NCBI GenBank assembly: GCA_021815445.1 | Contig: JAKAGM010000001.1 | Span: forward strand, 3,447 to 67,446 | Direction: 5' to 3' | Length of the DNA: 64,000 nt | Source: a bacterium | GTDB taxonomy: Bacteria > Patescibacteriota > Patescibacteriia > UBA10025 | In this document: positions 6,539-43,631 of the stretch, in pieces | Position numbering within the stretch: position 1 is the first letter of the stretch | Layout: each line of letters starts with the position of its first letter | Notes under the pieces: model-generated | Databases searched by the model: none | What the model saw: the letters and a program-made list of their open reading frames with translations, nothing else | What the model was told of the DNA's origin: nothing | Position numbers and translations under genes: made by a program

Positions 6539-6988
6539 ATGAATTGCTTATCCTGCGGCAAAGAAGACACGAAGGTCACTGATTCACGGGTAGTAAACGA
6601 TGGAATGGCGATTCGGAGACGTCGAGAATGCCAAAAATGCGGTTTCCGGTTCTCTACCTACGAAGAAGTTGAAATTTTAAATCTTTCAGTGGTCAAAAGG
6701 GACGGGGTCCATGAGCCCTATTCACGCGAGAAGGTTGAGCGCGGACTCAAAAAAGCTCTCGAGAAACGGCCGATAACGCAAGAGAAGTTCCGCATGCTCA
6801 TTGCAAACATTGAGCGGGATATTCAGACCGAGGCGAAATCCGACGAGGTGACCAGCAGCCAGATCGGCGAGATTATCATGCGCCATCTCAAAAAAGCCGA
6901 TAAGGTCGCATATATCAGGTTCGCGTCAGTGTATAAATCTTTTGAGGATATCGATTCTTTTAAACAAGAAATTAAAAAAATCACTTAA
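6539..6988 (+). CDS. nrdR: transcriptional repressor NrdR
   Basis: N-terminal zinc ribbon (CLSCG...CQKCGFRF) followed by an ATP-cone, directly upstream of the ribonucleotide reductase gene. Confidence 0.93.
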   Translation: MNCLSCGKEDTKVTDSRVVNDGMAIRRRRECQKCGFRFSTYEEVEILNLSVVKRDGVHEPYSREKVERGLKKALEKRPITQEKFRMLIANIERDIQTEAKSDEVTSSQIGEIIMRHLKKADKVAYIRFASVYKSFEDIDSFKQEIKKIT

Positions 6989-6999
6989 AAACCATCTTT

Positions 7000-9777
7000 A
7001 TGTCCTCTTCCGACGTATCTCCTACCCAAACAAAGGTTAAGGAGTCGGTGAGTGTGCTGACTCAAGAGCAGACTGCGGGGGCCGCGCACGCACGCGAAGG
7101 ACTCCATATGGATTATTTTTTTTCCCGCAAGGGTGTGCACCCCTATGATGAGATCGAATGGGAACTGCGCGAAGCCAAGATTGTCGGAAGCGACGGGAAA
7201 GTCGTTTTTGAGCAAAAAGATGTTGAATTGCCTAAGACGTGGTCGCAGCTTGCGACGAATGTTGTCGTATCCAAATATTTTCGCGGCAGGCTCGGGAGTC
7301 CCGAGCGCGAAACAAGCGTCAAGCAGATGGTATCGAGGGTAGCCGATACGATTGCCGCATGGGGGAAAGCAGGAGGCTATTTCGCCAGCGACGAGGACGC
7401 GGAGACTTTCCGCATGGAGCTTACGCATCTTCTCGTCTATCAAAAAGCGGCGTTTAACAGTCCCGTGTGGTTTAATGTCGGGGTCAAGGAACATCCGCAA
7501 TGTTCGGCCTGCTTTATCCTCTCCGTCCAGGATTCCATGGAGTCTATTTTAGATTGGATCAGGAAAGAAGGACTCATCTTTAAGGGCGGGTCCGGATCAG
7601 GCGTCAACCTCTCGACGCTCCGGTCATCGCGGGAACAGCTGTCCGGCGGCGGGTACGCGTCCGGTCCGGTCTCGTTCATGCGCGGCGCCGATGCTTCGGC
7701 CGGTTCCATAAAATCCGGCGGCACGACGCGCAGGGCGGCCAAGATGGTTATCCTCAATGTCGACCACCCCGATATCATTGAATTCATACATTGCAAAGAG
7801 GTCGAGGAAAAGAAGGCGTGGGCGCTCGGCGAACAGGGATACGATATGTCGATGAACGGTGAGGCGTGGAAGTCCATCCAATTCCAGAATGCCAACAATT
7901 CAGTGCGCGCGACGGATGAATTCATGCAGGCTGTTGAGAATGACGGTCTCTTTTCTACCCGCTCGGTAGGCAGCCACAACCCCGTAGACCAATACCGTGC
8001 CCGCGACATCCTGCGGCAGATATCCGAGGCGACCTGGGTATGCGGCGATCCCGGTTTGCAGTACGACACTACGATCAATGCGTGGCACACCTGTCCCAAT
8101 ACGGGCAGGATTAACGCCTCGAATCCGTGTTCAGAGTACATGCACCTCGATAATTCAGCGTGCAACCTCTCCTCAATCAACCTGATGAAATTCCTCAAGG
8201 ACGATGATTCTTTCGATGTCGGGGGGTACAAACGGGCGATAGATATCATGATTCTCGCGCAGGAAATACTCGTAGGATTTTCGAGCTATCCGACGGAGGA
8301 AATCTCGCGGAATGCCCATGATTACCGGGAGCTCGGTCTGGGATACGCGAACCTCGGCGCTCTTCTAATGTCATGGGGCCTGCCGTATGATTCAGACGCG
8401 GGCCGCGCGGTGTCTGCGGCTCTCACGGCGTTTCTTACCGGTGAAGCGTATGCGGAATCGGCGCGAGTAGCCGCTGTCGTCGGGCCTTTTGCCGGATACG
8501 AGAAAAATCGCGAGCCCATGCTCAATGTTATCGCAAAACACAAATTTCACCTGGATGATATCAACCGGCACTACGTCCCGGCTGAACTTTTTGCCGCCGC
8601 TGAAACCTCATGGACAGACGCACTGGAGCTTGGCAAGCACAACGGATTCAGAAACTCACAGACGACTGTCCTTGCCCCCACCGGAACGATCAGCTTCCTG
8701 ATGGATTGTGATACGACAGGCATCGAGCCCGACATAGCCCTGGTCAAATACAAGAATCTTGTCGGCGGCGGCGTCATGAAGATTGTCAACCACTCGGTGC
8801 CTCGCGCCCTGCACAGGCTCGGGTACAGCCAGGACCAGGTCGACGCTATCATAAGGTACGTCGACGACAAGGGGACTATCGAAGGAGCTCCGGAACTGAA
8901 AGAGGAACATCTCTCAGTTTTCGACTGCGCGTTCAAACCGGCGAATGGCGTCCGCTTCATCCACTACATGGGCCATATCAGGATGATGGGAGCCGCGCAA
9001 CCGTTTATCTCCGGGGCCATCTCAAAGACGGTAAACCTGCCGAAAGAAGCGACTGTCGATGATATTTCCACTGCGTATACCGAAGGGTGGAAGCAAGGCC
9101 TCAAAGCGCTCGCCATTTATCGCGACGGTTCCAAGCGCACGCAACCGCTCTCGACGGCCGATGATGATACGACCCAAAAGACGCGTGAGACAAAGCAAAA
9201 GTCATTGCGCAGACGGCTGCCGGACGAGCGCAAATCCATCACCCACAAATTCTCCGTCGGCGGCCATGAGGGGTACATCACCGCCGGGCTCTATGACGAC
9301 GGTACGCCCGGAGAAGTGTTCATTACCATGGCGAAAGAAGGCTCGACAATATCGGGGCTCATGGATGCCTTTGCTACCTCAATCTCCATCGGCCTCCAGT
9401 ACGGCGTCCCGCTCAAGACGATGGTCAATAAGTTTTCCCACATGAGGTTCGAGCCCTCAGGATTTACCGGTAACGCTGATATTCCGATAGCAAAGTCGAT
9501 TGTCGATTACATCTTCCGCTGGATGGGCAGGAAATTCCTCCCCCAGGAGGAGCAGGCGGAGGCGACAAAAGAAGCTGTCAAACCGATTGTCGAGAATGGC
9601 AATCATGACAGTGTAAAAGCAGAGACAGCGCCATCTGTTCCGTCCGCGTTCCAGCAAAAGATAACGTTCACCAACCAGGAGGACGCGCCTGCATGCCAGA
9701 CCTGCGGATCAATCATGGTCCGCAACGCGGCCTGCTACAAATGCACCAACTGCGGCGCTACAAGCGGGTGCAGCTAA
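7000..9777 (+). CDS. nrdJ: adenosylcobalamin-dependent (class II) ribonucleotide reductase
   Basis: A 925-aa protein with the NPCSEYMHLDNSACNLSSINL active-site region and a C-terminal Cys cluster (CQTCGS...CYKCTNCG). No separate beta subunit is present. Confidence 0.9.
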   Translation: MSSSDVSPTQTKVKESVSVLTQEQTAGAAHAREGLHMDYFFSRKGVHPYDEIEWELREAKIVGSDGKVVFEQKDVELPKTWSQLATNVVVSKYFRGRLGSPERETSVKQMVSRVADTIAAWGKAGGYFASDEDAETFRMELTHLLVYQKAAFNSPVWFNVGVKEHPQCSACFILSVQDSMESILDWIRKEGLIFKGGSGSGVNLSTLRSSREQLSGGGYASGPVSFMRGADASAGSIKSGGTTRRAAKMVILNVDHPDIIEFIHCKEVEEKKAWALGEQGYDMSMNGEAWKSIQFQNANNSVRATDEFMQAVENDGLFSTRSVGSHNPVDQYRARDILRQISEATWVCGDPGLQYDTTINAWHTCPNTGRINASNPCSEYMHLDNSACNLSSINLMKFLKDDDSFDVGGYKRAIDIMILAQEILVGFSSYPTEEISRNAHDYRELGLGYANLGALLMSWGLPYDSDAGRAVSAALTAFLTGEAYAESARVAAVVGPFAGYEKNREPMLNVIAKHKFHLDDINRHYVPAELFAAAETSWTDALELGKHNGFRNSQTTVLAPTGTISFLMDCDTTGIEPDIALVKYKNLVGGGVMKIVNHSVPRALHRLGYSQDQVDAIIRYVDDKGTIEGAPELKEEHLSVFDCAFKPANGVRFIHYMGHIRMMGAAQPFISGAISKTVNLPKEATVDDISTAYTEGWKQGLKALAIYRDGSKRTQPLSTADDDTTQKTRETKQKSLRRRLPDERKSITHKFSVGGHEGYITAGLYDDGTPGEVFITMAKEGSTISGLMDAFATSISIGLQYGVPLKTMVNKFSHMRFEPSGFTGNADIPIAKSIVDYIFRWMGRKFLPQEEQAEATKEAVKPIVENGNHDSVKAETAPSVPSAFQQKITFTNQEDAPACQTCGSIMVRNAACYKCTNCGATSGCS

Positions 9778-10208
9778 AAGCCGGATTAAAGGCGTAGTGG
9801 CAGACCTGCCCGCCGTATGAGACTACGGCAAGCGGGGCTTGCTCTGCGGCATGATTTTAAGAAACAATCCCAAAAAGCCCCGGAAGCAGTCACGCATCGG
9901 GACTTTTTGAATCATCCGGCGAAATATTATACTTCTTCCGCTGGAGCCGCTTTATCCGACCTGAGTTTATTGAGTTCGCTGCGCATTTTTGCGAGCGATT
10001 CCATCAGTCCCTCGAGGCCGAGATCAACATCTGCGGCTCTGAGGTTTGACAGATGATCCTTGAGTTCTTCCATATTTTTCGGTGTTTTTTACCTGTGAAT
10101 TAAACAGGCCAGTGTAGCAGAAATTGAAGTATTGTCAAGGGCCGCCTTTGCATTTACCGCCCGGGTGCAGTATCCTGAATCTTACCGGGCATTAAACGCA
10201 CGATACCT

Positions 10209-10808
10209 ATGACTTTCAACCAGCGCGACATAGAATTTCTCTACGAAATCGGCTCCCTGCGCAATGTGCAGAGGGGCTGGCGCCAGCATTTGGCAAAAGA
10301 CTGCGCCAACGACCTCGAGCATACGTACCGCGTCATATGGATAGCCCTCATGCTCGCGAGGAAAGAAGGGGTGACGGACGAGAACAAAGTTATTAAGATG
10401 GCGCTGGTGCATGACCTGGCCGAGGCGCGGACCTCTGACTTGAGCTATGTGCAGAAAGTGTACGTGAAAGCCGACGAAGACAAGGCGGCGCACGACACGT
10501 TCGACGGGACGAGCGTAAATGATTTTTACTCCGAGATACTGAGTGAGTTTGAAAAACGAGACTCATTAGAAGCAAAAATAGTCAAAGATGCCGACAATCT
10601 TGATGCGCAGATTGAGCTGAAAGAGCTTGAGGAAACCGGCTCGAAGATTGCCACGAAATGGATGGCCACTTTTCGCAAACTAGTCAGAAAGGAAAAACTC
10701 TACACCCGGGCGGCCAAAGACCTCTGGGATGCTCTCGACGAAGCTGATGTCGCTGACTGGCACATGAAGGCCAATAAATGGCTCAAGATCCCCGGCGCTG
10801 GCAAGTAA
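10209..10808 (+). CDS. HD-domain phosphohydrolase (YfbR-like 5'-deoxynucleotidase family)
   Basis: LEHTYRV...ALVHDLAEARTSD, an H...HD...D metal-ligand pattern. Confidence 0.7.
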   Translation: MTFNQRDIEFLYEIGSLRNVQRGWRQHLAKDCANDLEHTYRVIWIALMLARKEGVTDENKVIKMALVHDLAEARTSDLSYVQKVYVKADEDKAAHDTFDGTSVNDFYSEILSEFEKRDSLEAKIVKDADNLDAQIELKELEETGSKIATKWMATFRKLVRKEKLYTRAAKDLWDALDEADVADWHMKANKWLKIPGAGK

Positions 10809-10818
10809 GAGGCAAGTT

Positions 10819-11250
10819 ATGACAGTTGTCGATAAAAAGAAACGCGTTCTCGATTTCATCAAACGCCAACATGTAGCCGTGTTGGCGACGGTTGACGGCG
10901 TGCGGCGCGTACCCGAGTGCGCTGTCGTTGAATTCTCAGAGACGGATAACCTTGAGATTATTTTTGACACATTTTCCTCGTACCGCAAGTACGGAAATTT
11001 GCAGACGAACCAGCGCGTTGCGCTCGTGATCGGCTGCGAGGACGACGTCACTGTCCAGTACGAGGGCGTCGCCCGCGAGGTGACCGGTGACGAACTGAAA
11101 CGGTGCCAGAAAATTCATACGGCCAAGCTTCCCGGTGCGAAAAAGTTCACGACGATGGAAGACATCAGATTTTTTCGTATTACCCCGGTGTGGATCCGCT
11201 ACGTGAATGTGTCGCTCGATCCGTGGGAAGTCTTCGAGCTTTCATTATGA
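10819..11250 (+). CDS. pyridoxamine 5'-phosphate oxidase-like FMN-binding split-barrel protein
   Basis: A 143-aa protein whose VLDFIKRQHVAVLATVDG N-terminus is typical of the PNPOx-like family. Its stop overlaps the next start (ATGA). Confidence 0.65.
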   Translation: MTVVDKKKRVLDFIKRQHVAVLATVDGVRRVPECAVVEFSETDNLEIIFDTFSSYRKYGNLQTNQRVALVIGCEDDVTVQYEGVAREVTGDELKRCQKIHTAKLPGAKKFTTMEDIRFFRITPVWIRYVNVSLDPWEVFELSL

Positions 11251-11822
11251 AGAGTACTCCCAAAAAGAAGTTTAAAGTCCTGAATCGCGGACTGACCATT
11301 GCCTATATCGGAAACGGGAAAGGGAAGACAACCGCGGCTGTCGGCGCGGCAGTCAGAGCGCGCGGCTGCGGGATGCGAGTGCTTTTTTTGCAGTTCTATA
11401 AAAGTCCCGAATGGCCCTCGGGAGAACGGCAGGCTCTCGTGAAGCTGGGCGTCAAGGTTCACGTTGTCGGCGAGGGGTTTGTCGGCATCCTCGGAGACAG
11501 AAAAAAACTTGCCGTACACAAAAAGGCCGCGGAGCGGGCGCTGAGAGAGAGCCGTAGAGCCCTTGTTTCAGGCGCATACGACCTTATTATCCTCGACGAA
11601 GCTATTTCGTGCCTCGAGCAGAAGCTGTTTACGCCTGCCCGGCTGGCGACACTCCTGAAGCTCAAACAAAAATCCACAAAAGCATCTCATGTCCACTTGA
11701 TTTTGACCGGCCACAAAAGATTTCCGCAGATACTCAAGCTCTGCGACCTGGTCACTGAGATGAAGATGGTGAAGCACCCATATTACCAAGGGTTTTTGGC
11801 GGTAAGGGGAGTGGATTATTAA
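11247..11822 (+). CDS. cobA: ATP:cob(I)alamin adenosyltransferase (CobA/BtuR type)
   Basis: P-loop GNGKGKTTAAVGAAVRA, plus LDE and VTEMKMVKHPY motifs. The start is refined to the ATG at 11247 (ATGA overlap with the previous stop). Confidence 0.85.
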   Translation: MKSTPKKKFKVLNRGLTIAYIGNGKGKTTAAVGAAVRARGCGMRVLFLQFYKSPEWPSGERQALVKLGVKVHVVGEGFVGILGDRKKLAVHKKAAERALRESRRALVSGAYDLIILDEAISCLEQKLFTPARLATLLKLKQKSTKASHVHLILTGHKRFPQILKLCDLVTEMKMVKHPYYQGFLAVRGVDY

Positions 11823-11954
11823 CCACAAAGTACTATGGACACCCCAACACCTCAGCCCACCCCACAATCCTCATCAAGCACAATGATGCGAGTCATTTTG
11901 GTAATCATTCTCATTATCGTCGGCGCGGGCGCTTACTTCTGGTGGCAGAAAGGG
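11815..11954 (+). repeat. 140-bp direct repeat, copy 1 (leader plus first 40 codons)
   Basis: Read base by base, it is identical to 13371..13510. It begins in the last 8 nt of cobA. Confidence 0.95.
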
Positions 11955-13304
11955 CAAGCAAATACGAACAGTGCGAACCTCGTCCTCAATGCCATGAACC
12001 AGAGTACCAATGCGCCCTCCAACATCAATTCGGTTGCCAACGCGAACACCACCTTGAATACCAATATCGCCGTAAATGCCAATACTCCCGCTAATCTCAA
12101 CACGGCAGTAAACACCAATACTGCGGTAAACTCAAATACCAATACCGCAGTGGATACGAGCGGGTGGCTGGCCGAGACGGCGCGATGCAGTCATGAGCCC
12201 GTATCTCAGCAAAAGGAAAGTATCTTAACTGATAACTCTGACTGGCAAGTCATACGGGTATACAGGGGTGAGCTAAAATTCTCGTACGAAGTACCTTCTA
12301 GTGCAACTTTTAATACCGGTCTGGACAGATATACGAAAACTGGGTCAGAAGAGAGGGAAGTAATATCCGAAGTAAATCTAGAAGGTATGGCTATTGATGT
12401 TAGATGGTATAAAAACAACTCTTCGTTTGAGCTGTGGACTAGGGATCATGAGAATGAGATTTATACTTCCTATATTGCCAGCTCACGTGGCGCGGCAATA
12501 TCGGAACCAGAGCAGATAGTTGTTGATGGACGCAAAACAAAAACATATGAAGTTACGAGTCCTTTTGGGTTTAAGGTAATGCTGGTTTTTGTTGAGGATG
12601 GGGATAAAATATATCAAATAGAGGTTCGGGGGCCAGCGGAGAATATGGAAAACTTCAAAGGGGATATCAATAAAGTATTAATGAGTTTTCACTTTGAAAT
12701 CCCTGATCCAGGTGAATTGATATTTACCTATCGCGAAATTGATCTGTCCTTCAGGTATCCTTCATCCGTCGGCACTCCTCAGCTTGCATGGGGTACCCCA
12801 GTGAATAATAAAAATTGGGAGAAAGCTATGATTGAAGTAGGTCAGAAAGGCCAAAGTGCTTTTTCAATAACACGGGAAGCGGATTATTATAGCTCACATG
12901 AAAATGAGTGGCTGTATACTTTTTACGGGAAAGCGGTCGATGCTAAGCAGCCTCTTTCAGATTTAATCCTTTTTATAAGTAGAGATTTCAAAAATATTCT
13001 CGGTATTTCAAATAAATGTGGTTTCGTTGAGATAGTTGAACTAGACCAATATAATACTCAAACAGCGTTAATTTATCGAGCATTTGTTCCTCATCCTGAT
13101 TATAAGGTTGTATTAGCAACTTTCGTGATAAGTACATCTTTTCCTAATCTTGAAAATAGTAATATTGATCCTAATCTTGTGATAGCCAATGATATGCTCA
13201 ATGACATTAAAATGGGTACATTTCAACAAGATATTATTCAGAATTTAGACACATTTCGTGCGATCTTACCAACAATAAAAACTGCAACACCCCTACCCCG
13301 CTGA
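11835..13304 (+). CDS. TM-anchored surface protein with an Asn-rich linker and an AT-rich unique C-terminal domain
   Basis: The N-terminus MDTPTPQPTPQSSSSTMMRVILVIILIIVGAGAYFWWQKG is identical to that of 13391..14113, followed by an N-rich linker that ends in AVDTSGW. Confidence 0.7.
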   Translation: MDTPTPQPTPQSSSSTMMRVILVIILIIVGAGAYFWWQKGQANTNSANLVLNAMNQSTNAPSNINSVANANTTLNTNIAVNANTPANLNTAVNTNTAVNSNTNTAVDTSGWLAETARCSHEPVSQQKESILTDNSDWQVIRVYRGELKFSYEVPSSATFNTGLDRYTKTGSEEREVISEVNLEGMAIDVRWYKNNSSFELWTRDHENEIYTSYIASSRGAAISEPEQIVVDGRKTKTYEVTSPFGFKVMLVFVEDGDKIYQIEVRGPAENMENFKGDINKVLMSFHFEIPDPGELIFTYREIDLSFRYPSSVGTPQLAWGTPVNNKNWEKAMIEVGQKGQSAFSITREADYYSSHENEWLYTFYGKAVDAKQPLSDLILFISRDFKNILGISNKCGFVEIVELDQYNTQTALIYRAFVPHPDYKVVLATFVISTSFPNLENSNIDPNLVIANDMLNDIKMGTFQQDIIQNLDTFRAILPTIKTATPLPR

Positions 13305-13370
13305 CTTCGATGGCGACGGCCTTTCTTAATACTTGCTGCTAGGTTACAATGGATATGTAATCTGACAGTA

Positions 13371-13510
13371 ATTATTAACCACAAAGTACTATGGACACCC
13401 CAACACCTCAGCCCACCCCACAATCCTCATCAAGCACAATGATGCGAGTCATTTTGGTAATCATTCTCATTATCGTCGGCGCGGGCGCTTACTTCTGGTG
13501 GCAGAAAGGG
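13371..13510 (+). repeat. 140-bp direct repeat, copy 2
   Basis: Identical to 11815..11954. Confidence 0.95.
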
Positions 13511-14113
13511 GATACAAAAATAAACACCGCAAACATTGCCATTAATACTACCAATAGGAACACAAATACCGTCTCCAATGCCAATTCGGCTGTGAATACC
13601 AATGTTGCCTCAAATGTCAACACTGCCGCTAATCTCAACACAGCGGTGAATGTGAATGCGGGGGCAAACTTAAACACCAACGCGGCAGTGGATACGAGCG
13701 GGTGGAAGACGTATGAGAATAGCACGTATGGGTACAACATCAAATATCCAACAGACTGGAAGGTAGTTGAGGCCACGGGGATGCTTACAGAATTCTCGCC
13801 CACGAGCAAGGATTATACCGTCGAGGGCTCGATTGCCTACCCCGTGGGGATAACAGGCTATACAGGCGCTGCATCTGATTTCTTAAGTCAGGTGTCGTCA
13901 GATAAGAAGAGTTCAGTAACCATTAATAATCAGGCTGCCACAAAGGTCATAGGATATTCGAATTCAATCTCTTATGTCTTTTCTAATCAGGCGCGAGTGC
14001 AATATCTGGTAATTGGTCCAAATAGCGCGCTGTTAAATAACGTAGATGTTTCAGATCGATCAACAATAGAATCGATGTTTGAGGCAATGCTTCGGACGTT
14101 CACAATTCAATAG
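13391..14113 (+). CDS. TM-anchored surface protein sharing its N-terminal module with 11835..13304
   Basis: Same 40-aa N-terminus and an N-rich linker ending in AVDTSGW, followed by an unrelated C-terminal domain (YENSTYGYNIKYPTDWKV...). Confidence 0.7.
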   Translation: MDTPTPQPTPQSSSSTMMRVILVIILIIVGAGAYFWWQKGDTKINTANIAINTTNRNTNTVSNANSAVNTNVASNVNTAANLNTAVNVNAGANLNTNAAVDTSGWKTYENSTYGYNIKYPTDWKVVEATGMLTEFSPTSKDYTVEGSIAYPVGITGYTGAASDFLSQVSSDKKSSVTINNQAATKVIGYSNSISYVFSNQARVQYLVIGPNSALLNNVDVSDRSTIESMFEAMLRTFTIQ

Positions 14114-14197
14114 GAGGTAAGAATGCACTTTAACAACTGGTCTACCTGAAGGTCAGATAGAAACCACTATCCAACTCCCAAACTAAAGAGGTGTTAC

Positions 14198-16189
14198 ATG
14201 AGAACTGTAATGGTCGCTCTTGTTGCGCTGGTGCTGTCAGCTACCAGCGCTGTAGCAGTCGATCTAACGGAAACTGGATTTTACTACCCAACTGGCAGCC
14301 ACACATTAGGCAGCTATGCCGGATGGTTAGCAGTTCCGCCAGCTTACTTTGACGGCTACTACCATATCGGCAAAGATATTGACACCGGTGAAGTTGCGCC
14401 TGTGTACGCAATTTCGAATGGCATCGTGATCTACATCAGTTCTGGTGGATGGGGGACGAACAACAAGGGGGTGTTTGTGAGGCACACCCTTGTAGATGGG
14501 TCTCAGTTCGTTGCGCTTTACGGACACGTGAGAACAAGCAAGGTGGTGAATGACGCGGTACAAGCTGGTGTTCAATTTGCGACGATTGGGCCGTGGGATC
14601 CGACACATTTGCATTTTGGCATTCATCCTGGAGGGACTATACCCTCCGATCCATACGGTATGCTACCCTTGCCGGTGACATCGCCGTACAATGGCTGGCA
14701 GGATCCAATCGATTGGATTGCAACGCACAGTCCCGCTGGTGCTTACTCCTGCTCCTTCGTCTCCAAGTCTATCTCGCCTGCCGGTCCGTATGTTCCAGGG
14801 CAGACAGTTACCTGCCAGGTGAAGTTCAAGAACGAGGGTACGGCAACGTGGAGTAAGACAGGCGGCCAGTCGAATTACGTCGAATTGGGATCGTGCGACG
14901 GAAACGGAGGCATCGGCTACAGTTTCTTCAACTATCCCTGCACACTCCCCAATGACGGCCAAGTTCCATCATGGCTGAATTGCAAAGTGCCATGCACCTT
15001 CGTAGAATCCAATGTGCCGCATGGCAGTAATGCGACCTTCAACTTCACGGGTAAGATTAGGGACACGTTACCCAGTACATACAGCGTGTATTTCGGACCT
15101 GTCTGGAATAGCGCAATCATGTCTGGCTGGGTCGGGACGCATTACGCCGTCCAAGTCACCATCCCTGAGTCGTTCTCTACCATGACCCTTACCCCCATCG
15201 CAGGTGATTGGAACGGAGATGGAGTCTCCGAGGTCGGGGTCTATGCCGACGAGACGCAAACCTTCTATCTGGACACCAACAATGACGGGTATACGGAGTT
15301 GGAGCTTCATTACAGCTCAGCCGTAGACAAACCTTTGGCCGGCAACTGGGCTGGCGGCGGGTACTACGGCGTTGGTTTTTACCGTCCCGCCTATCGCACC
15401 TTCTGGCTGGATTATGACAACAACGGCCAGATGGACAATGGCATTGTGTTTGGTGACGGTGGAGACACGCCTTTGGCAGGTGACTGGCTTGGGAACGGCT
15501 ATTCCCGAATTGGCCTATACCGCCCTTCAACCAGGACATTCTGGCTGGACTACGACAACAACGGCACTGCAGACTTTAGCCGTGTCTTTGGAGATGCCAC
15601 GGACATTCCTATCACGGGAGACTGGGACTGTGACTTGGACTGGAACATCGGCGTTTACCGCCCGTCTACCAGGACGTTCTGGTTAGACTACAATAATGAC
15701 GGCTCGGCCGATTTCTCCCGAACCTTCGGAGACGCCGGTGATCTTCCCGTTGTCGGAGACTGGACCGGCAACTGCGGCACCAACATCGGCGTATTCCGCC
15801 CCTCCACCCAGGAATTCTGGCTCGATTACAACAACGACGGAACGGCTGACCGAGGGTTCCAGATCCAACGGATTATTCCCGGTTCGCCTAAGATCACGGC
15901 ACATGGAGAAGACAATACTCTGCCTCGGACATTCTCCCTGTCCCAGAATTACCCGAACCCGTTCAACCCGGGCACGACGATCAGGTACACCTTGCCGAGG
16001 AGTACCCACGTCGTTCTTTCCATCTACAATGTTCTGGGGCAGAAGCTGGAGACTCTGATTGATGAGCACCAGTTCGCCGGAGAGTATATCGCTTTCTGGG
16101 ACGGATCGCGCTTCGCATCGGGCATGTACTTCTACCGCCTCGTCACCGATCAGGCGGTGGAGACAAAAAAGATGATTCTTTTGAAGTAA
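14198..16189 (+). CDS. secreted M23 (LytM-type) peptidase-domain protein with tandem repeats and a T9SS C-terminal sorting domain
   Basis: Signal peptide MRTVMVALVALVLSATSAVA. M23 motifs HIGKD (HxxxD) and HLHFGIH (HxH). About five ~47-aa repeats (GDW.G.G...YRPSTRTFWLDY.N.G.AD). C-terminus QNYPNPFNPGTTIRYTLP...GMYFYRLV...ETKKMILLK. Confidence 0.8.
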   Translation: MRTVMVALVALVLSATSAVAVDLTETGFYYPTGSHTLGSYAGWLAVPPAYFDGYYHIGKDIDTGEVAPVYAISNGIVIYISSGGWGTNNKGVFVRHTLVDGSQFVALYGHVRTSKVVNDAVQAGVQFATIGPWDPTHLHFGIHPGGTIPSDPYGMLPLPVTSPYNGWQDPIDWIATHSPAGAYSCSFVSKSISPAGPYVPGQTVTCQVKFKNEGTATWSKTGGQSNYVELGSCDGNGGIGYSFFNYPCTLPNDGQVPSWLNCKVPCTFVESNVPHGSNATFNFTGKIRDTLPSTYSVYFGPVWNSAIMSGWVGTHYAVQVTIPESFSTMTLTPIAGDWNGDGVSEVGVYADETQTFYLDTNNDGYTELELHYSSAVDKPLAGNWAGGGYYGVGFYRPAYRTFWLDYDNNGQMDNGIVFGDGGDTPLAGDWLGNGYSRIGLYRPSTRTFWLDYDNNGTADFSRVFGDATDIPITGDWDCDLDWNIGVYRPSTRTFWLDYNNDGSADFSRTFGDAGDLPVVGDWTGNCGTNIGVFRPSTQEFWLDYNNDGTADRGFQIQRIIPGSPKITAHGEDNTLPRTFSLSQNYPNPFNPGTTIRYTLPRSTHVVLSIYNVLGQKLETLIDEHQFAGEYIAFWDGSRFASGMYFYRLVTDQAVETKKMILLK

Positions 16190-16224: not shown

Positions 16225-16258
16225 CCCTTGCGACAACGGTGCTGCAGGGGATTTTTTT
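16225..16258 (+). terminator. intrinsic terminator
   Basis: cccttgc...gcagggg stem (one mismatch) followed by a T7 run. Confidence 0.6.
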
Positions 16259-16339
16259 ATTTAACCTTCGCGATTCTGCGTTCTGTCTACCTCGGTTTGA
16301 GTTATGCACCATTGACTGGTTGAGCGAAACCCTGGTACA

Positions 16340-16525
16340 CTTCATCCACATTAACAACTCATAACAGGTAAGCCGGTGAGATTCCGGCACGGTCCCGCCA
16401 CGGTAATAAATAGTCCGACACCTTTTCGCCCCCTTACGTAGTAAGGAGCGGATAAAGCCAAATCATTCGAGCTTGAGCTCGAGTCCTTCGGGGAAAGGTC
16501 GGACGATACTTGCCTTAGTTTACAC
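16340..16525 (+). promoter_or_regulatory. cobalamin (B12) riboswitch aptamer
   Basis: aagccGGTGagATTCCggcaCGGTCCCGCCACgGTAA matches the conserved cobalamin-riboswitch core. gtccgac pairs with gtcggac, and a B12-box-like gtcggacgatacttGCC is present. The boundaries are approximate. Confidence 0.8.
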
Positions 16526-16535
16526 TGCAGCGCGG

Positions 16536-16561
16536 CCTTAGAAGGGAACTAAGGTTTTTTT
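16536..16561 (+). terminator. riboswitch expression-platform terminator
   Basis: ccttag-aagggaa-ctaagg hairpin followed by a T7 run. An upstream duplicate gccttag (16512-16518) can pair with ctaagg as an antiterminator. Confidence 0.7.
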
Positions 16562-16583
16562 AATTTAGTAACATCACTTTCAT

Positions 16584-17054
16584 ATGGATAAACCTCCAAT
16601 GGTAGTAGTCAAACAAAAAGCAAAAACGAATTATGCGGCACTCGGAATCATCGCCGTCGTGGCGGCCGGCGTATTATTTTTCGGGAATGCCTATAACAAA
16701 GGAGTAACCAATGACGCCCAGAAAGCGGGCGCAGGCGTTGTTGCCGGAGTAGAGTCAGTCCAGCAGGAAGCGACGCTCACCATCAACAACGGCAAAACCA
16801 CCCGCAGTATGGTCATGACCCTCAATCCGGGCGTCTCTGCGCTTGATCTCGTCATCCGGGCGGGAATGAGGGAAAACTTTACAGTCGAAACGAAGAAATA
16901 TGACTTCGGGACCATCGTCGAATCTATCGACGGCGTGCGCGGCGGCGACCAGAAGAAATACTGGCTGTACTATGTGAACGGCAAACAGGCGACAGTCGGC
17001 GCGGATGCGTACAAAGTGCAATCCGGGGATACCATAGACTTCAGATTCGAATAA
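16584..17054 (+). CDS. DUF4430 (transcobalamin beta-domain-like) putative extracellular cobalamin-binding protein
   Basis: TM anchor followed by ...DGVRGGDQKKYWLYYVNGKQATVGADAYKVQSGDTIDFRFE, typical of DUF4430. It is the first gene after the B12 riboswitch. Confidence 0.7.
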   Translation: MDKPPMVVVKQKAKTNYAALGIIAVVAAGVLFFGNAYNKGVTNDAQKAGAGVVAGVESVQQEATLTINNGKTTRSMVMTLNPGVSALDLVIRAGMRENFTVETKKYDFGTIVESIDGVRGGDQKKYWLYYVNGKQATVGADAYKVQSGDTIDFRFE

Positions 17055-17059
17055 TTTCC

Positions 17060-17584
17060 ATGAAAAAAAAGTACTCCATTGCCGTAGCTCTCGCATTGAT
17101 TCTGGTCGGGATGGCCGTCCGTCTCCTTCCGCATCCGGCCAATTTTACCCCCCTTGCCGCAATAGCGCTTTTTTCCGGCGTGTATCTTCCCCGCAGGTTT
17201 GCTCTCGTTGTGCCTCTCGCCGTGATGGTGGCTTCTGATGCGTTGATTGGCTTTCACAACCTCGTACTCTTTACCTGGGGATCCTTCGCGCTGATCGGAG
17301 TGATCGGCTGGTGGGTACAAAAGCATAAGCACGTCACTACGGTCATCGGCGGGGCGCTTGCCGGGTCTCTGCTCTTTTACCTCGTGACTAACTGGGCCGT
17401 GATGCAATTCGGGACTATGTACCCGCACACCATCTCGGGATTACTTGGCTCGTATGCTGCGGGGATACCTTTTTTCCGCAACATGCTTCTCGGAGACCTT
17501 TTTTACACGTCGACCTTTTTCGGGGCCTATGAATTGGCTGAGCGGCTGGGCGTGCGGATAGGAGCCCGCGCAGAAATTCGGTAA
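17060..17584 (+). CDS. small polytopic membrane protein, putative corrinoid transporter component (ECF-S-like)
   Basis: A 174-aa protein with about 5-6 TM segments and the motif RLLPHPANFTPLAAIALFSG. It starts 5 nt after the DUF4430 gene in the same riboswitch-controlled unit. The function is inferred from context only. Confidence 0.5.
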   Translation: MKKKYSIAVALALILVGMAVRLLPHPANFTPLAAIALFSGVYLPRRFALVVPLAVMVASDALIGFHNLVLFTWGSFALIGVIGWWVQKHKHVTTVIGGALAGSLLFYLVTNWAVMQFGTMYPHTISGLLGSYAAGIPFFRNMLLGDLFYTSTFFGAYELAERLGVRIGARAEIR

Positions 17585-17690
17585 CTCTAGGTCCCTTTCT
17601 AGGGTCCAAAACCCGGATTGAATTCCTGGCATAACTGTTGTTTTTCTTGAGAAATCTTGATATACTTGGGGGGTTCACACATATTGTCGT

Positions 17691-18620
17691 ATGGCTAATT
17701 ATCAAAACTATCGCAGGTACCGCAACCAAGGAGGGGACGGACGCCAGCGGGTGGGAAAGGCGGTACTTCTTTTGGCGGCCTTTCTTTTTATTTACCTGAT
17801 CGCGCGGGCAATCTTTGGCAGCGATAAAAACACCTCGATACTCAATACGCTGAATGAACCGCTTGCCAATGTCGGGTCTGCAAACACGGCAAATAACATA
17901 AATGGCATCGTCAATGGCGCTATCAACGGTAATAACAACAGCAATACCAACACAAACGTCAATGCAAGCCCTTCGGCTTCATCATCGACGTTTTCGGTTG
18001 CAAGCAATTGCGCCGCAGTAAAGTCGCGCGGGAGCGAAACGAAAAAAGCAGTAGCCCTCACCTTTAATGTCGGTACGATCAAAGAGGGAAGCATCGACGC
18101 TGTTTTGACCGGACTGAAAAACGGATCGGTGCCGGCGGCTTTCTTTGCGACAGGTGATGTCGCGTCGGGCAACGCGGCGCTTGTCAAGAAAATAGCCGAT
18201 GCGAATTTCCCGGTCTATAATTTCGGCAACAGCCTCGTGAAGTTTACCGACCTGCAAGAGGCGGGCATTACCGAACAGTTGACGAAAGCCGAAGCAAGCA
18301 TTTCAGCTGTTACCGGCGTGAGCACCAAACCGTTTTTCCGCCCCCCGTACAATGCCGTCGACGATACCGTGCTTGCCACTGTCAAGAAAGACGGGTACTG
18401 TCCCGTGGTCTCGACTTTTGATGCTCTCGACTGGAGCGCTGACAGCACGGCGGCTTCCTCGAAGGAGCGCGTGCTTTCAAAGGCCTCGAACGGGTCTATC
18501 ATCCTGATGCAAGCGTCGAACAGCATTACAGCCGAGATTCTTCCCGATGTGATCAGCGGCCTGAAGGCAAAAGGGTTTACTTTTGTAAGTCTTGATGCGC
18601 TTTTAGCGAGCTCATCATAA
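17691..18620 (+). CDS. polysaccharide deacetylase (CE4) family protein, TM-anchored
   Basis: TM anchor, N-rich linker, ALTFNVGT...FFRPPYNAVDD...ALDWS motifs. Confidence 0.75.
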   Translation: MANYQNYRRYRNQGGDGRQRVGKAVLLLAAFLFIYLIARAIFGSDKNTSILNTLNEPLANVGSANTANNINGIVNGAINGNNNSNTNTNVNASPSASSSTFSVASNCAAVKSRGSETKKAVALTFNVGTIKEGSIDAVLTGLKNGSVPAAFFATGDVASGNAALVKKIADANFPVYNFGNSLVKFTDLQEAGITEQLTKAEASISAVTGVSTKPFFRPPYNAVDDTVLATVKKDGYCPVVSTFDALDWSADSTAASSKERVLSKASNGSIILMQASNSITAEILPDVISGLKAKGFTFVSLDALLASSS

Positions 18621-18648
18621 TGTAACATAAGGAGGTCCTTTTGAGCCT

Positions 18649-19068
18649 ATGGCCGGAGAAGAAAAACAACAGTCTTCCACAGCTTTAAATGCCGGTCTCA
18701 TAGCCCTTGCCGCGCTTGTGATTGCGGGAAGCATCTTTTTTGCATTCCGACACAAGGTTGCGCCTGCGATGAACGCTCCATCAGCGGGGACAAACACCCC
18801 GGCGGCTGCGCAAAATGCCAACACGGGAAAATTTGAAGGCGATTCCATCACCGTGGGATGCTCCAGTAATGACGACTGTGTCGTCTGGGGGTGTTCAAGC
18901 CAGCTCTGCGGGAGAAAGGTGAAAGTGCAAGACTTAACAACGACGTGTGAATATAAGGACGTTTACTCGTGCACAAAGCTGACAACATGCGGATGCTTCG
19001 AAGGGGAATGCCAATGGCAGCAGACGCCCGATTATACTTCCTGCGTGGAGAAAAAGAAGTCTTCATGA
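18649..19068 (+). CDS. TM-anchored small Cys-rich (eight-cysteine-cluster-like) protein
   Basis: An AAGGAGG sequence lies upstream. TM anchor followed by CSSNDDCVVWGCSSQLCG...CEYKDVYSCTKLTTCGCFEGECQW. Confidence 0.55.
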   Translation: MAGEEKQQSSTALNAGLIALAALVIAGSIFFAFRHKVAPAMNAPSAGTNTPAAAQNANTGKFEGDSITVGCSSNDDCVVWGCSSQLCGRKVKVQDLTTTCEYKDVYSCTKLTTCGCFEGECQWQQTPDYTSCVEKKKSS

Positions 19069-19108
19069 AATTTTCAGGAAGCGATTTTATCCTGTATCTA
19101 TTGAGAAG

Positions 19109-19138
19109 TTGACAGTCTTTTTATCGCGAAGGTATACT
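19109..19138 (+). promoter_or_regulatory. sigma70-type promoter (TTGACA-18 nt-TATACT)
   Basis: TTGACA at 19109-19114 and TATACT at 19133-19138, upstream of htrA. Confidence 0.55.
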
Positions 19139-19176
19139 TTTTACCACATCGCGTAATAACGAAATACGAACGTTGT

Positions 19177-20442
19177 ATGGACACAAAACCTCAAGTGCAT
19201 TCAAAACCCCCGGAAATGTCTCTCAGCAAGAATCTGTTTGTAGTGGCGATAATCACCAGTCTCGTTATCGGCGGACTTTCAGGAGGTATTTTTGGCGTTG
19301 TGGCAACACAAAATCCCCAGTTTACCTCATGGATCCAAAAAAATGTCTTAAACTCTTCCCGGGCCTCTTCGACAGCAAATCTCACGGGCACCGGCAGCAC
19401 GCTCCAAGTCCAAGAGGATTCGGCCACTGTCGACGTGGTCAAACAGGCGACGCCGGCTGTCGTGAGCATCGTTGTCAAGCAGGACTTGAGCAAGCTCAAT
19501 AATAACAATACGTTCCCTTTTTTCAATTCGCCTTTCCAATTTAACGTTCCCCAAGGAGAACAGCAGATCGGCGCGGGAACCGGCTTTATCATCACCTCCG
19601 ACGGGCTTATCCTTACCAATAAGCACGTCGTTTCAGCCGGGCAAGACACCACGGGCAGCGCGACGCAATACACGGTCATCATGAATGACGGCAAGCAGTA
19701 TGACGCGACAGTCGTCGATACCGACCCGGTGAACGATTTTGCGCTGATTCGAATCAAGGCCACGGGGCTCCCCAAGCTTGACCTGGGAGATTCCGATACC
19801 GTCCGGGTAGGGCAGACGGTCATAGCCATCGGCAATGCCCTGGGACAATTCAGCAACACGGTGACGAAAGGGGTGATCTCGGGACTGTCCCGGACTATCA
19901 CGGCAGGAGACAGCCAAAACACGTCCGAAAGGCTGGAAAATATCTTTCAGACTGACGCGGCAATAAACTTCGGCAATTCGGGCGGACCGCTTCTCAACCT
20001 GGCCGGCCAGGTCGTCGGTCTCAACACGGCCATCAGCCAGCAAGGCCAGCTCATCGGATTCGCTATCCCTATTAACCAGGCAAAGACCGTTATCGCGAGC
20101 GTGCAAAAGTACGGCAAAATCGTGCGTCCGTACATGGGCGTCAGGTATGTGCAGGTGGATGATGCCGTAGCCGCTGAAAACAAATTAAGTGTCAACTACG
20201 GGGCGCTCCTGCTCAAGGGAAGCTCGGCAAATGAACCAGCGGTGATAGCAGGCAGCCCGGCGGACAAAGCCGGACTCGTGGAGAATGACATTATTCTCGA
20301 GTTTAACGGGAAGAAAATTACCGCTGATAACTCACTTGCGAGCGCCATCCAGAAGCTCAATCCAGGGGATACCGTCCAGCTCAAAGTTCTGCGCCAGGGA
20401 AAAGAAAAAAATATTTCGGTGACTCTCGAGGAGTTTAAATAA
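19177..20442 (+). CDS. htrA: HtrA/DegP-family serine protease with PDZ domain
   Basis: GTGFIITSDGLILTNKHVV (His region), D...ALIRI, and GNSGGPLLN (catalytic Ser), followed by a C-terminal PDZ-like region. Confidence 0.9.
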   Translation: MDTKPQVHSKPPEMSLSKNLFVVAIITSLVIGGLSGGIFGVVATQNPQFTSWIQKNVLNSSRASSTANLTGTGSTLQVQEDSATVDVVKQATPAVVSIVVKQDLSKLNNNNTFPFFNSPFQFNVPQGEQQIGAGTGFIITSDGLILTNKHVVSAGQDTTGSATQYTVIMNDGKQYDATVVDTDPVNDFALIRIKATGLPKLDLGDSDTVRVGQTVIAIGNALGQFSNTVTKGVISGLSRTITAGDSQNTSERLENIFQTDAAINFGNSGGPLLNLAGQVVGLNTAISQQGQLIGFAIPINQAKTVIASVQKYGKIVRPYMGVRYVQVDDAVAAENKLSVNYGALLLKGSSANEPAVIAGSPADKAGLVENDIILEFNGKKITADNSLASAIQKLNPGDTVQLKVLRQGKEKNISVTLEEFK

Positions 20443-41572: not shown

Positions 41573-41647
41573 CGGACCCAAGGGGATTTGAACCCCTGGT
41601 CTTCTCCGTGACAGGGAGACGTGTTAACCGGGCTACACCATGGGTCC
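41573..41647 (-). tRNA. tRNA-Asp (GTC)
   Basis: Manual cloverleaf: GGACCCA/TGGGTCC acceptor, GTGT/ACAC D-stem, TCTCC-CTGTCAC-GGAGA anticodon arm, AGGGG-TTCAAAT-CCCCT T-arm, discriminator G. No CCA is encoded. Confidence 0.9.
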
Positions 41648-43231: not shown

Positions 43232-43631
43232 TGGTGGAGATGAGGGGAATTGCACCCCTGTCCAATATACGAACCAGTCAACGTCTCCAAGCTATCCTAT
43301 TTTAGCGTGGTCGATGGCAGAAGTCAAAATAGGAAAAAGGTCCTGCCATCCGAGTCTCGTGGTACGGCCGGGAGCAAGAGACACGCTCGTCGGTCGTCCT
43401 CCGTTTGTGACACCTCCGACCTTCTCAGGAGGAATCAGAAGGGGAGATGGTTATCGGTTTTTACGCGACAACAGGCGCAAAGGAAGGCGCAAATACGCTT
43501 GCAAGTGCGGTCTTCGCTTTGCTTACAAATGATTTGGCATTTGTCTAATTGGAGCCAGTTTAACGTCATGAACTGCCGTGGACGGCTTGCAGTTGAGATG
43601 GCAATGTACACTGTCGATTATAAGCATCCCC
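43232..43631 (-). ncRNA. ssrA: tmRNA (SsrA)
   Basis: 5' GGGGATGCTTATAATCGACAG... and 3' ...GGACAGGGGTGCAATTCCCCTCATCTCCACCA. The acceptor GGGGAUG/CAUCUCC includes a G3:U pair (alanine identity). It lies directly downstream of smpB. A candidate tag frame ends ...FAPVVA-UAA. Confidence 0.88.

Follow-up and report, generated by a model that had tools for sequence, protein, structure and literature searches.

A reduced cobalamin riboswitch candidate and a putative two-gene corrinoid uptake unit in a patescibacterium

The DNA analysed here is a stretch of 64,000 nucleotides from a patescibacterial contig, called the window below. It encodes a leader RNA that resembles a reduced cobalamin riboswitch, followed by a gene for a DUF4430 protein and a gene for a DUF6580 membrane protein. 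It is likely, in our judgment, that the four elements belong together as a reduced riboswitch, a switch that works through hairpin P13, a DUF4430 binder and a DUF6580 corrinoid carrier. On the basis of fold and gene neighbours, DUF6580 is probably a new family of B12 importers. We infer the substrate, the transport direction and the energy coupling of the two-gene unit. The first-pass annotation suggested a minimal corrinoid importer, and this may reasonably be supposed.

The genes of the unit, and an upstream block (6539..11822) of B12-user and salvage genes identified with tblastn using the proteins of relatives, Pfam and the list of open reading frames, are as follows.

6539-6985, forward strand: NrdR
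7000-9777, forward strand: class II (B12-dependent) ribonucleotide reductase
10209-10808, forward strand: HD-domain protein
10819-11250, forward strand: PNPOx-like protein
about 11247-11822, forward strand: corrinoid adenosyltransferase CobA/BtuR
16584..17054, forward strand: DUF4430 gene (Pfam PF14478); the start may be 16599
17060..17584, forward strand: DUF6580 gene (Pfam PF20221), 174 aa, with a PHPxNFxP loop motif

The DUF4430 gene, which encodes 151 aa according to the gene callers, matches PF14478 with 63.5 bits against a gathering score of 23.8 (E 2.5e-17). Its product has an N-terminal transmembrane anchor followed by a transcobalamin-beta-like domain. A comparison of the DUF4430 profile with the PDB matched the entries 4KKI, 3KQ4, 2PMV and 5NO0. 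The E-values are 6.8e-5 for the beta domain of transcobalamin-1 (4KKI), 0.004 for intrinsic factor and 0.0096 for the TC2 beta domain alone. This agrees with the relation to the transcobalamin/intrinsic-factor beta domain that was proposed for this membrane-anchored protein from the sequence. By profile search, DUF4430 is a homologue of the beta domains found in transcobalamin, haptocorrin and intrinsic factor (4KKI, 2PMV, 5NO0; E from 6.8e-5 to 0.01), but the window protein consists of the beta domain only, is anchored in the membrane and lacks the alpha6/alpha6 barrel. As the counterpart of CbrS, it may bind B12 at the surface while held by its membrane anchor.

The product of the second gene matches PF20221 with 170 bits against a gathering score of 27 (E 6.3e-50). 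No other Pfam family was found in it, the CbrT-family models PF12822 and PF07155 included, and NCBIfam returned no family for DUF6580. The description of a 174-aa protein with several membrane helices and the motif HPANFTP (residues 25-31) holds, and the structure model (pLDDT 92.6) predicts the S-component fold, in which six membrane helices form a small bundle. In sequence, the comparison with ECF S-components that the first-pass annotation had suggested gives a marginal similarity to CbrT and none to BtuM. CbrT (6FNP_A) is the only PDB match of the DUF6580 family profile, a marginal one (E 0.21). The hhalign alignment with CbrT, also marginal (54% probability, E 1.3e-4, 62 columns), runs across TM1-TM3 and aligns the motifs R..P.P.N..P and SD/N..GF. 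A weak match to PF07155 (E 0.003) does occur in one other DUF6580 protein, P0160. The BtuM structures 6FFV and 8OVV were not found by the profile search of the PDB up to an E-value of 10. The window protein contains no cysteine, nor do 96 of the 270 family members, and the highest fraction of cysteine in any alignment column is 46%. We therefore rejected membership in the BtuM family, there being neither a conserved cysteine nor sequence similarity; membership in the CbrT family is not supported by Pfam.

At 50% identity, the family falls into 6598 clusters. The DUF6580 loci that we fetched belong mainly to Patescibacteria, Ignavibacteriota, Bacteroidota and Omnitrophota. Literature searches returned nothing relevant on DUF6580, on cobalamin riboswitches of Patescibacteria or on cobalamin transporters of the Candidate Phyla Radiation. 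Among 81 DUF6580 loci, a DUF4430 gene occurs in 43, a TonB-dependent receptor in 22, NrdJ in 19, CobA in 15 and PduO in 11, and one natural protein, P0184, is a fusion of DUF6580 with DUF4430. A large DUF4430 protein is found in 17/81 loci; the larger DUF4430 paralogues in related loci also carry a cyclase-like helical domain. In the window, the corrinoid would be carried across the membrane by the S-component-type DUF6580 protein, as by CbrT and BtuM, adenosylated by the nearby CobA and would then serve the class II ribonucleotide reductase of the upstream block.

Two known transport systems can be compared with this unit. The proven ECF-CbrT transporter of Lactobacillus delbrueckii (PDB 6FNP) is encoded in an nrdJ-cbrS-cbrT-pduO cluster, away from which the ECF module is encoded (PMC5997447). 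The gene order of a CbrT-type locus is RNR-II, DUF4430, DUF4430, ECF_trnsprt protein and PduO, and the gene logic is common to both systems, which combine a B12-dependent class II reductase with at least one DUF4430 protein, a small membrane protein of the S-component fold and a corrinoid adenosyltransferase. There are three differences. CbrT relatives carry PF12822/PF07155, whereas the window protein carries PF20221 only; CbrT works with an ECF module, whereas motif searches of the window and of the 5 kb around the gene in the 81 loci show none near DUF6580; and the paper on L. delbrueckii CbrT mentions no riboswitch (PMC5997447), whereas the two-gene unit of the window follows one. The second system, BtuM of Thiobacillus denitrificans (PDB 6FFV, 8OVV), is a solitary S-component-like B12 transporter that co-localises with btuB and btuR and has an invariant cobalt-binding cysteine, Cys80 (PMC6072759). 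It is mostly proteobacterial (131 matches reported), and its hosts lack ECF modules (PMC6072759). The window protein differs from BtuM in having no cysteine, and the fetched DUF6580 loci differ in their taxonomy.

A tentative reading that goes further places DUF6580 beside CbrT and BtuM as a third, distinct family of S-component-fold cobalamin transporters, which would need no ECF module. The vitamin would be trapped inside the cell once CobA or PduO had adenosylated it, B12 would be handed over by a surface binder or a BtuB-like receptor, and the riboswitch would be a distinct architectural variant with Px in place of P1/P2. The transcobalamin-beta-like binder would then serve Patescibacteria, and the BtuB-like receptor lineages with an outer membrane. 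The common view is that Patescibacteria have no outer membrane.

A rival explanation of the unit, which we regard as rather unlikely, treats DUF6580 as an ordinary group-II ECF S-component that is not self-sufficient as an importer and needs a shared EcfA-EcfA'-EcfT module encoded elsewhere, like CbrT. The S-component fold, the weak but specific similarity to CbrT and the parallel with the nrdJ-cbrS-cbrT-pduO cluster, whose ECF module is also elsewhere, all fit this explanation. Other observations speak against it. No ABC ATPase motif lies within 5 kb of DUF6580 in any of the 81 loci, none of the open reading frames in the 64-kb window combines a Walker A motif with an LSGGQ-type signature, and Pfam found no ABC or ECF component among the flanking genes. 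Within this search, the earlier statement that no ATPase or T-component is nearby stands. Many DUF6580 genes of Gram-negative lineages adjoin TonB-dependent receptors, which is the pattern of BtuM, and BtuM hosts have no ECF modules. An AxxxA motif in TM1 is the contact of S-components to EcfT. It is present in the window protein (A8xxxA12), but the position is not conserved in the family alignment and just 30 of 181 family members have such a motif in TM1.

It is improbable that the DUF6580 protein carries something other than a complete corrinoid, for instance cobalt as CbiM does, a precursor such as cobinamide, or the lower ligand as CblT does, or that it is no more than a membrane dock of the DUF4430 protein. 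The genes that accompany it, for a transcobalamin-beta-like binder, for BtuB-like receptors, for adenosyltransferases and for a B12-dependent reductase, all point to the salvage of complete corrinoids. Moreover, no cobalamin biosynthesis genes were found in the fetched DUF6580 loci, and the host contig is only ~0.88 Mb long. Patescibacteria would not be expected to make B12 de novo.

The proposed role in B12 uptake also draws on the leader RNA that precedes the two genes. Its promoter and aptamer region contains the following elements.

16225..16258, forward strand: intrinsic terminator of the upstream M23-peptidase gene (read from the sequence)
16312..16341, forward strand: promoter found by promoter scan (-35 TTGACT, 18-nt spacer with TG, -10 TACACT)
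16366..16423, forward strand: cobalamin aptamer core, a four-way junction (RF00174 alignment and compensatory changes)
16366-68 with 16421-23, forward strand: P3
16372-76 with 16384-88, forward strand: P4
16391-92 with 16398-99, forward strand: P5, with loop L5 UCCCG at 16393-97
16401-03 with 16415-17, forward strand: P6 (3 bp, 11-nt loop, no P6 extension)
about 16410-16425, forward strand: B12 box AUAGUCCGACACCUU (covariance-model alignment)
16425..16452, forward strand: hairpin Px directly 3' of P3 (covaries among relatives)
16425-29 with 16448-52, forward strand: outer stem of Px, UUCGC with GCGGA
16432-36 with 16442-46, forward strand: inner stem of Px, CCUUA with UAAGG

The upstream terminator has the stem CCCUUGC/GCAGGGG, a 12-nt loop and a U7 run; the pattern scan missed it, as its loop exceeds 8 nt. 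It would insulate the riboswitch operon from the upstream gene. Both promoter boxes are kept at the matching position in the aligned leaders L084, L085, L001 and L083. Transcription probably starts near 16347-16350, and only ~18 nt of the leader lie upstream of P3.

The conserved core GGTGAGATTCCGGCACGGTCCCGCCACGGTAA, which had been noticed from the sequence, can be read directly at 16375-16406. The RF00174 model aligns with the whole core in a match at 16309-16443 (30.7 bits, E 4.9e-6, local search). This is 0.8 bit below the gathering score of 31.5 bits; a search of the whole window at that score gives no match, and the expected above-threshold hit did not materialise. Two syntenic leaders do exceed the gathering score, L002 with 36.2 bits and L084 with 32.2 bits. 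The P6 extension, a peripheral element of AdoCbl class I, is absent from the alignment, where its site has 1 nt in the window leader and 66 in the model. The segment GTCGGACGATACTTGCC at 16499-16515 had been taken for a B12-box-like element. In the covariance-model alignment, however, the box lies at ~16410-16425, and we rejected the segment as the box: it is the reverse complement of part of the true one, and its positions 16499-16504 lie within the element 16494..16504 described below.

The structure of the core is supported by compensatory changes in P3, P4 and P6, both in six related leaders and in 49 model matches. In the six-sequence alignment, whose manual trimming was guided by the structure, 99.4% of the structure cells are paired and 6 pairs show compensatory changes; neither value was reached by any of 500 shuffles. 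In the 49-sequence alignment, which was fitted to the model, 92.7% of cells are paired and 22/23 pairs show compensatory changes. The model built for this lineage gives the window 62.6 bits, the window being among the sequences that built it. Minimum-energy folding of whole leaders as single sequences was uninformative: the window leader folds no better than its shuffled sequence (z = -0.88). A metagenome scan for GGTCCCGCCAC-N60-90-TCCTTCGGGGA returned 5 loci, among which L089, nearly identical to L084, is the sole real relative.

The association of the membrane protein family with B12 riboswitches, on which the first-pass annotation had made its reading depend, is supported by Rfam: clan CL00101 is represented in 16 of 37 DUF6580 loci, several of which have RF01689 matches. 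Matches of the lineage model in loci oriented by DUF6580 lie on the DUF6580 strand in 47 of 48 cases.

The helix that Rfam would call P1 (16322-29 with 16424-31) was rejected. It falls within the promoter spacer, between the -35 and -10 boxes, so that it is probably not transcribed, and it is not conserved in relatives. Part of the 30.7-bit score comes from this pairing. Directly 3' of P3 stands Px, whose stem reads CCGCC/GGCGG in L002 and L084, CCUCC/GGAGG in L001 and CUUUUUUUCC/GGGGUAGAAG in L083, with compensatory changes in 6/6 pairs of the 49-sequence alignment. It appears that Px replaces the usual 5'/3' closing helices P1/P2 in the window leader. The leader can be described as a candidate reduced cobalamin riboswitch, in which the P3-P6 four-way junction is kept and may bind the ligand.

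The closest described architecture is presumably that of RF01689 (clan CL00101), which we take to be the AdoCbl-II/env8 type that lacks the P6 extension and regulates through an L5-L13 kissing loop. This type would share its four-way junction with the window leader, along with the GGUCCCGCCAC L5 region, a B12 box, the missing P6 extension and, further downstream, a hairpin whose loop is complementary to L5. The window leader would differ in having Px where the closing helix normally stands, and in a P13 that is separate from the terminator and is proposed to act via an antiterminator.

The expression platform consists of the following elements.

16466..16483, forward strand: extra small hairpin UUCGAGC..GCUCGAG (alignment, fold)
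16485..16498, forward strand: P13 hairpin CCUU-CGGGGA-AAGG, invariant in six relatives
16494..16504, forward strand: AAAGGUCGGAC, the P13 3' arm plus UCGGAC (read from the sequence; folds)
16512..16561, forward strand: intrinsic terminator (terminator scan, energy evaluations, homologous terminators)
16512-20, forward strand: conserved 5' arm of the terminator, GCCUUAGUU
16534-41, forward strand: second, window-specific 5' arm, GGCCUUAG
16547-56, forward strand: 3' arm, AACUAAGGUU
16555-61, forward strand: U7 run

The extra hairpin lies between the conserved linker AAAGCCAAAU and P13 and occurs only in the window and L085. The loop of P13 is complementary to L5 (UCCC/GGGA or CCCG/CGGG), which makes P13 a candidate kissing-loop partner and switching element. 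As the L5 and P13-loop bases are invariant in the six leaders, covariation speaks neither for nor against the contact. In L011, a leader left out of model building, the P13 loop is CGGGAA, fully complementary to UCCCG (5 bp). As read from the sequence and from minimum-energy and nascent-transcript folds, the element AAAGGUCGGAC can pair with either of two alternative partners: GCCUU of the terminator 5' arm, or the B12 box together with the P3 3' strand (16413-16425), where 11 bp form around a 2-nt bulge.

The scan reported a terminator-like site at 16534-16556 followed by a T run, and homologous terminators are present in the aligned leaders L002, L085, L083, L001 and L084. The first-pass annotation had read a transcription attenuator from GCCTTAG at 16512-16518 and 16535-16541, CTAAGG at 16549-16554 and T7 at 16555-16561. 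These sequences are where it placed them, and the cobalamin riboswitch, the intrinsic terminator and the two-gene unit all stand. We do not retain the idea that the two GCCTTAG copies form the terminator and the antiterminator. They are alternative 5' arms of one terminator with nearly equal energy: CTAAGG pairs with either copy in a hairpin followed by U7, at -8.0 and -7.9 kcal/mol. In relatives, the position of the 5' arm is conserved for the first copy only. The 5' half of P13 has a complement within the terminator loop, the segment CCUU-A-GAAGG (16536-45).

Folding of the nascent platform suggests a different switch. In the six leaders and L011, the predicted structure in which the P13 arms pair with the terminator 5' arm is better by 5-15 kcal/mol than the structure with P13 locked, and the terminator appears when P13 is locked. 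For the full-length window leader, the terminator structure is predicted at -17.7 to -20.4 kcal/mol and the antiterminator at -15.2 to -16.5 kcal/mol; with the terminator slightly more stable, read-through would depend on kinetics. According to our model, binding of a corrinoid would let P13 (16485-16498) dock onto L5 (16393-97) through the kissing loop. The GCCUUAG arms would then be free to pair with AACUAAGG, and the terminator at 16512-16561 would stop transcription before the genes. Without ligand, P13 would be unlocked, and its two G-rich halves would pair with the GCCUU copies and GAAGG (16512-16, 16536-45). This pairing in the nascent transcript would be the antiterminator and lead to read-through. 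Ligand binding, the kissing loop and the antiterminator are what we infer from these folds and alignments.

The view that this RNA is a remnant, either decayed or unable to switch, with a terminator that attenuates constitutively or regulation at translation and an antiterminator that is a folding artefact, would suit the sub-threshold Rfam score, the minimal P6, the two redundant 5' arms, which would make termination robust, and the full-length minimum-energy structure, which forms the terminator whether or not P13 is locked; but we hold it to be very improbable, since the core, linker and P13 are kept nearly base for base though the adjacent DUF6580 proteins are 58-68% identical to that of the window, the stems have compensatory changes, and the alternative pairing of P13 with the terminator recurs in seven independent leaders despite differing terminator sequences.

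According to the BtuM paper (PMC6072759), most B12-dependent prokaryotes still have no identified inner-membrane B12 transporter. The Rfam cobalamin models miss divergent riboswitches in the organisms considered here, four clearly homologous leaders being below the gathering score. The patescibacterium of the window has a tiny genome and depends on a ribonucleotide reductase that requires B12; a candidate entry route for the vitamin would help explain how Patescibacteria rely on their neighbours. The DUF6580 family is large and widespread, so an assignment of function would improve genome annotation and the prediction of B12 sharing in communities. If the reading of DUF6580 as a third, ECF-independent transporter family is true, it would be the main B12 entry route of Patescibacteria and of many Ignavibacteriota, Bacteroidota and Omnitrophota.

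Judged by its sequence, the leader of the DUF4430-DUF6580 gene pair is a genuine cobalamin riboswitch with a reduced architecture. The core GGTGAGATTCCGGCACGGTCCCGCCACGGTAA is read directly at 16375-16406, where the first-pass annotation had placed it. A local Rfam run gave a match to the cobalamin riboswitch model RF00174 at 16309-16443 (30.7 bits, E 4.9e-6). This is 0.8 bit short of the gathering score of 31.5, and the above-threshold hit on which the annotation had staked its claim was formally not obtained. No cobalamin riboswitch was reported by the whole-window Rfam run at gathering thresholds, where the sole matches were a tmRNA (43232-43631, reverse strand, 86.7 bits), which carries an insertion of ~45 nt 3' of the tag-coding region, and a tRNA gene (41573-41647, reverse strand). 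The sub-threshold score is outweighed by the remaining evidence.

A promoter, TTGAC-N17/18-TACACT, is conserved in the six-leader alignment and was also found by a promoter scan; its position in the window (16312-16341) places the probable transcription start near 16348. We regard the Rfam-aligned "P1" (GAGCGAAA at 16322-29 with UUUCGCCC at 16424-31) as fortuitous, because it sits in the promoter spacer between -35 and -10 and is absent from the relatives. The conserved RNA comprises the following elements.

16366-68 with 16421-23: P3, AGG with CCU
16372-76 with 16384-88: P4
16393-97: loop L5, UCCCG, carried by P5
16401-03 with 16415-17: minimal P6, CGG with CCG, extension absent (1 nt vs 66 in the RF00174 model)
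about 16410-16425: B12 box
16425-16452: Px hairpin, directly 3' of P3
between Px and P13: linker AAAGNCAAAU, conserved in the leaders
16485-98: invariant P13 hairpin, CCUU-CGGGGA-AAGG

In the six-leader core alignment, trimmed by hand, 99.4% of cells are paired and six pairs, in P3, P4, P6 and Px, have compensatory changes; neither value was matched by any of 500 shuffles, and slid controls dropped to 41-68% paired. A covariance model made from this alignment and run on 86 sources gave 49 matches. For 48 of these the DUF6580 gene sets the orientation of the locus, and 47 of the 48 lie on the strand of that gene. Locus L011, outside the building set, scored 71.1 bits. Over the 49 matches, in an alignment fitted to the model, compensatory changes occur in 22 of 23 pairs. 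The P13 loop complements L5; since the bases of both are invariant, an L5-P13 kissing loop is plausible rather than established. Four clearly homologous leaders (L001, L083, L085 and the window) are under every Rfam gathering score, and thus Rfam-based censuses undercount B12 riboswitches of Patescibacteria.

The annotated GCCTTAG copies (16512-18 and 16535-41), CTAAGG (16549-54) and T7 run (16555-61) are all in place. The segment described as B12-box-like proved to be something else: its start (16499-16504), taken together with 16494-98, is the reverse complement of 16413-25, in the B12 box proper and the P3 3' strand, and 16494-16504 can form an alternative helix of 11 bp with that stretch. 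Rather than forming a terminator/antiterminator pair, as had been proposed, the GCCTTAG copies can each serve as 5' arm to one and the same 3' arm (-8.0 and -7.9 kcal/mol). Homology marks the first copy as the conserved terminator 5' arm (L085 GCCUUAGC/GCUAAGGU, L002 GCCUUAAC/GUUAAGG); in the leader alignment the second sits inside an enlarged terminator loop.

We folded the nascent platform, i.e., the stretch from P13 to just 5' of the terminator's 3' arm, for the six leaders and L011. In all of them the free platform is predicted to form an alternative structure from the P13 arms and the terminator 5' arm, favoured by 5-15 kcal/mol over the fold with locked P13. The terminator is predicted to form when P13 is locked and its loop unavailable. 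For the window transcript at 16546, the predicted fold pairs CCUUCGGGG (16485-93) with CCUU-A-GAAGG (16536-45) and AAGGU (16495-99) with GCCUU (16512-16), at -16.2 kcal/mol vs -8.9 with P13 locked. Both GCCUU copies would be sequestered because the halves of P13 pair with these segments, and on this model the duplicated motif makes sense, each half having a target of its own. For the full-length leaders of the window and L085, the terminator state is predicted to have a slight advantage in stability, therefore read-through would be under kinetic control. The whole scheme (alternative P13 pairing, terminator, kinetic read-through) is built on thermodynamically predicted folds. Most likely the riboswitch works by ligand-dependent termination of transcription, in which P13, as a candidate kissing-loop hairpin, would be the switch.

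Both downstream ORFs were correctly placed: DUF4430 at 16584-17054 (E 2.5e-17) and DUF6580 at 17060-17584 (E 6.3e-50). The DUF4430 protein has an N-terminal hydrophobic anchor, and the DUF4430 profile matches the beta domains of transcobalamin-1 (E 6.8e-5), intrinsic factor (0.004) and transcobalamin-2 (0.0096). CbrT is the sole PDB match of the DUF6580 family profile (E 0.21); hhalign against a CbrT alignment gave 54% probability and put the motifs R..P(H)P.N..P and SD/N..GF in register. DUF6580 is itself neither BtuM nor CbrT, since the family is without the invariant cysteine of BtuM and does not match the Pfam families of CbrT.

The window DUF6580 protein is identical to one encoded on contigs as long as 881 kb. 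Its relatives are mostly labelled Patescibacteria, and six share a local gene order. In L001, L002, L083, L084 and L085, CobA is followed by the leader, DUF4430, DUF6580 and a polysaccharide deacetylase; the order is unchanged in L011 except that a gap of roughly 600 nt separates CobA from DUF4430. In five of the six, the exception being L011, a gene for an HtrA-type protease follows. The following window genes keep the order of the relatives.

6539-6985: NrdR
7000-9777: NrdJ
about 11247-11822: CobA

The window has three extra genes (11835-16189) between CobA and the leader, an insertion compared with these loci. Two are tandem paralogues (11835-13304 and 13391-14113; region 11815-14113) whose starts form a 299-nt direct repeat (78% identity between the copies). 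The first 40 residues of the two products are identical and include a membrane anchor; low-complexity linkers rich in Asn and Thr come next, and neither product matches a Pfam family. The third (14198-16189) encodes a 663-residue protein with Peptidase_M23, five "FWLDYDNNG"-type repeats and, at the C-terminus, a sorting domain for type IX secretion (Por_Secre_tail), unexpected for a Patescibacteria genome. The order from DUF6580 through the deacetylase to the HtrA-type protease is kept at 17585-20442 and in L001, L002 and L083-L085, with a Heavy_Cys_CGP protein between the latter two where gene calls with Pfam existed. There is no clear terminator 3' of DUF6580, so riboswitch control might extend to these genes. 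The interval from the B12-dependent reductase to CobA contains genes for an HD-domain protein (YfbR-like 5'-deoxynucleotidase) and a PNPOx-like flavoprotein (10209-11250); that the flavoprotein is a corrinoid reductase feeding CobA is speculation.

The association of the family with B12 riboswitches, on which the annotation also depended, is borne out: Rfam finds riboswitches of clan CL00101 in 16 of 37 DUF6580 loci, 13 times upstream on the same strand and three times a short way downstream, in front of the following gene. Gene clustering over 81 loci found DUF4430 directly upstream in 43, a TonB-dependent receptor in 22, NrdJ in 19, a large DUF4430-plus-cyclase-like protein in 17, CobA in 15, NrdR in 12 and PduO in 11; none of the 81 had an ORF with ABC ATPase motifs. 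In protein P0184, DUF6580 (residues 5-165) and DUF4430 (255-329) are naturally fused. In Omnitrophota-type loci (L019, L022, L040, L053, L066) the riboswitch is 3' of DUF6580, ahead of a TonB-dependent receptor, and DUF6580 is usually preceded by CobA and/or Sm_multidrug_ex.

ECF-CbrT, a transporter proven by experiment, is encoded in an nrdJ-cbrS-cbrT-pduO cluster (PMC5997447). One CbrT-type locus has the order RNR-II, DUF4430, DUF4430, ECF_trnsprt protein, PduO. BtuM is encoded alongside btuB and btuR and functions without an ECF module (PMC6072759). DUF6580 loci show both neighbour patterns. Among the papers in the library searched, none mentions DUF6580; a transport role has already been guessed in the NCBI label "DUF6580 family putative transport protein", which does not include the substrate. 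The controlled genes are probably a CbrS/CbrT-like pair for B12 capture and uptake, the putative uptake protein being a member of a large uncharacterised family (6598 clusters at 50% identity).
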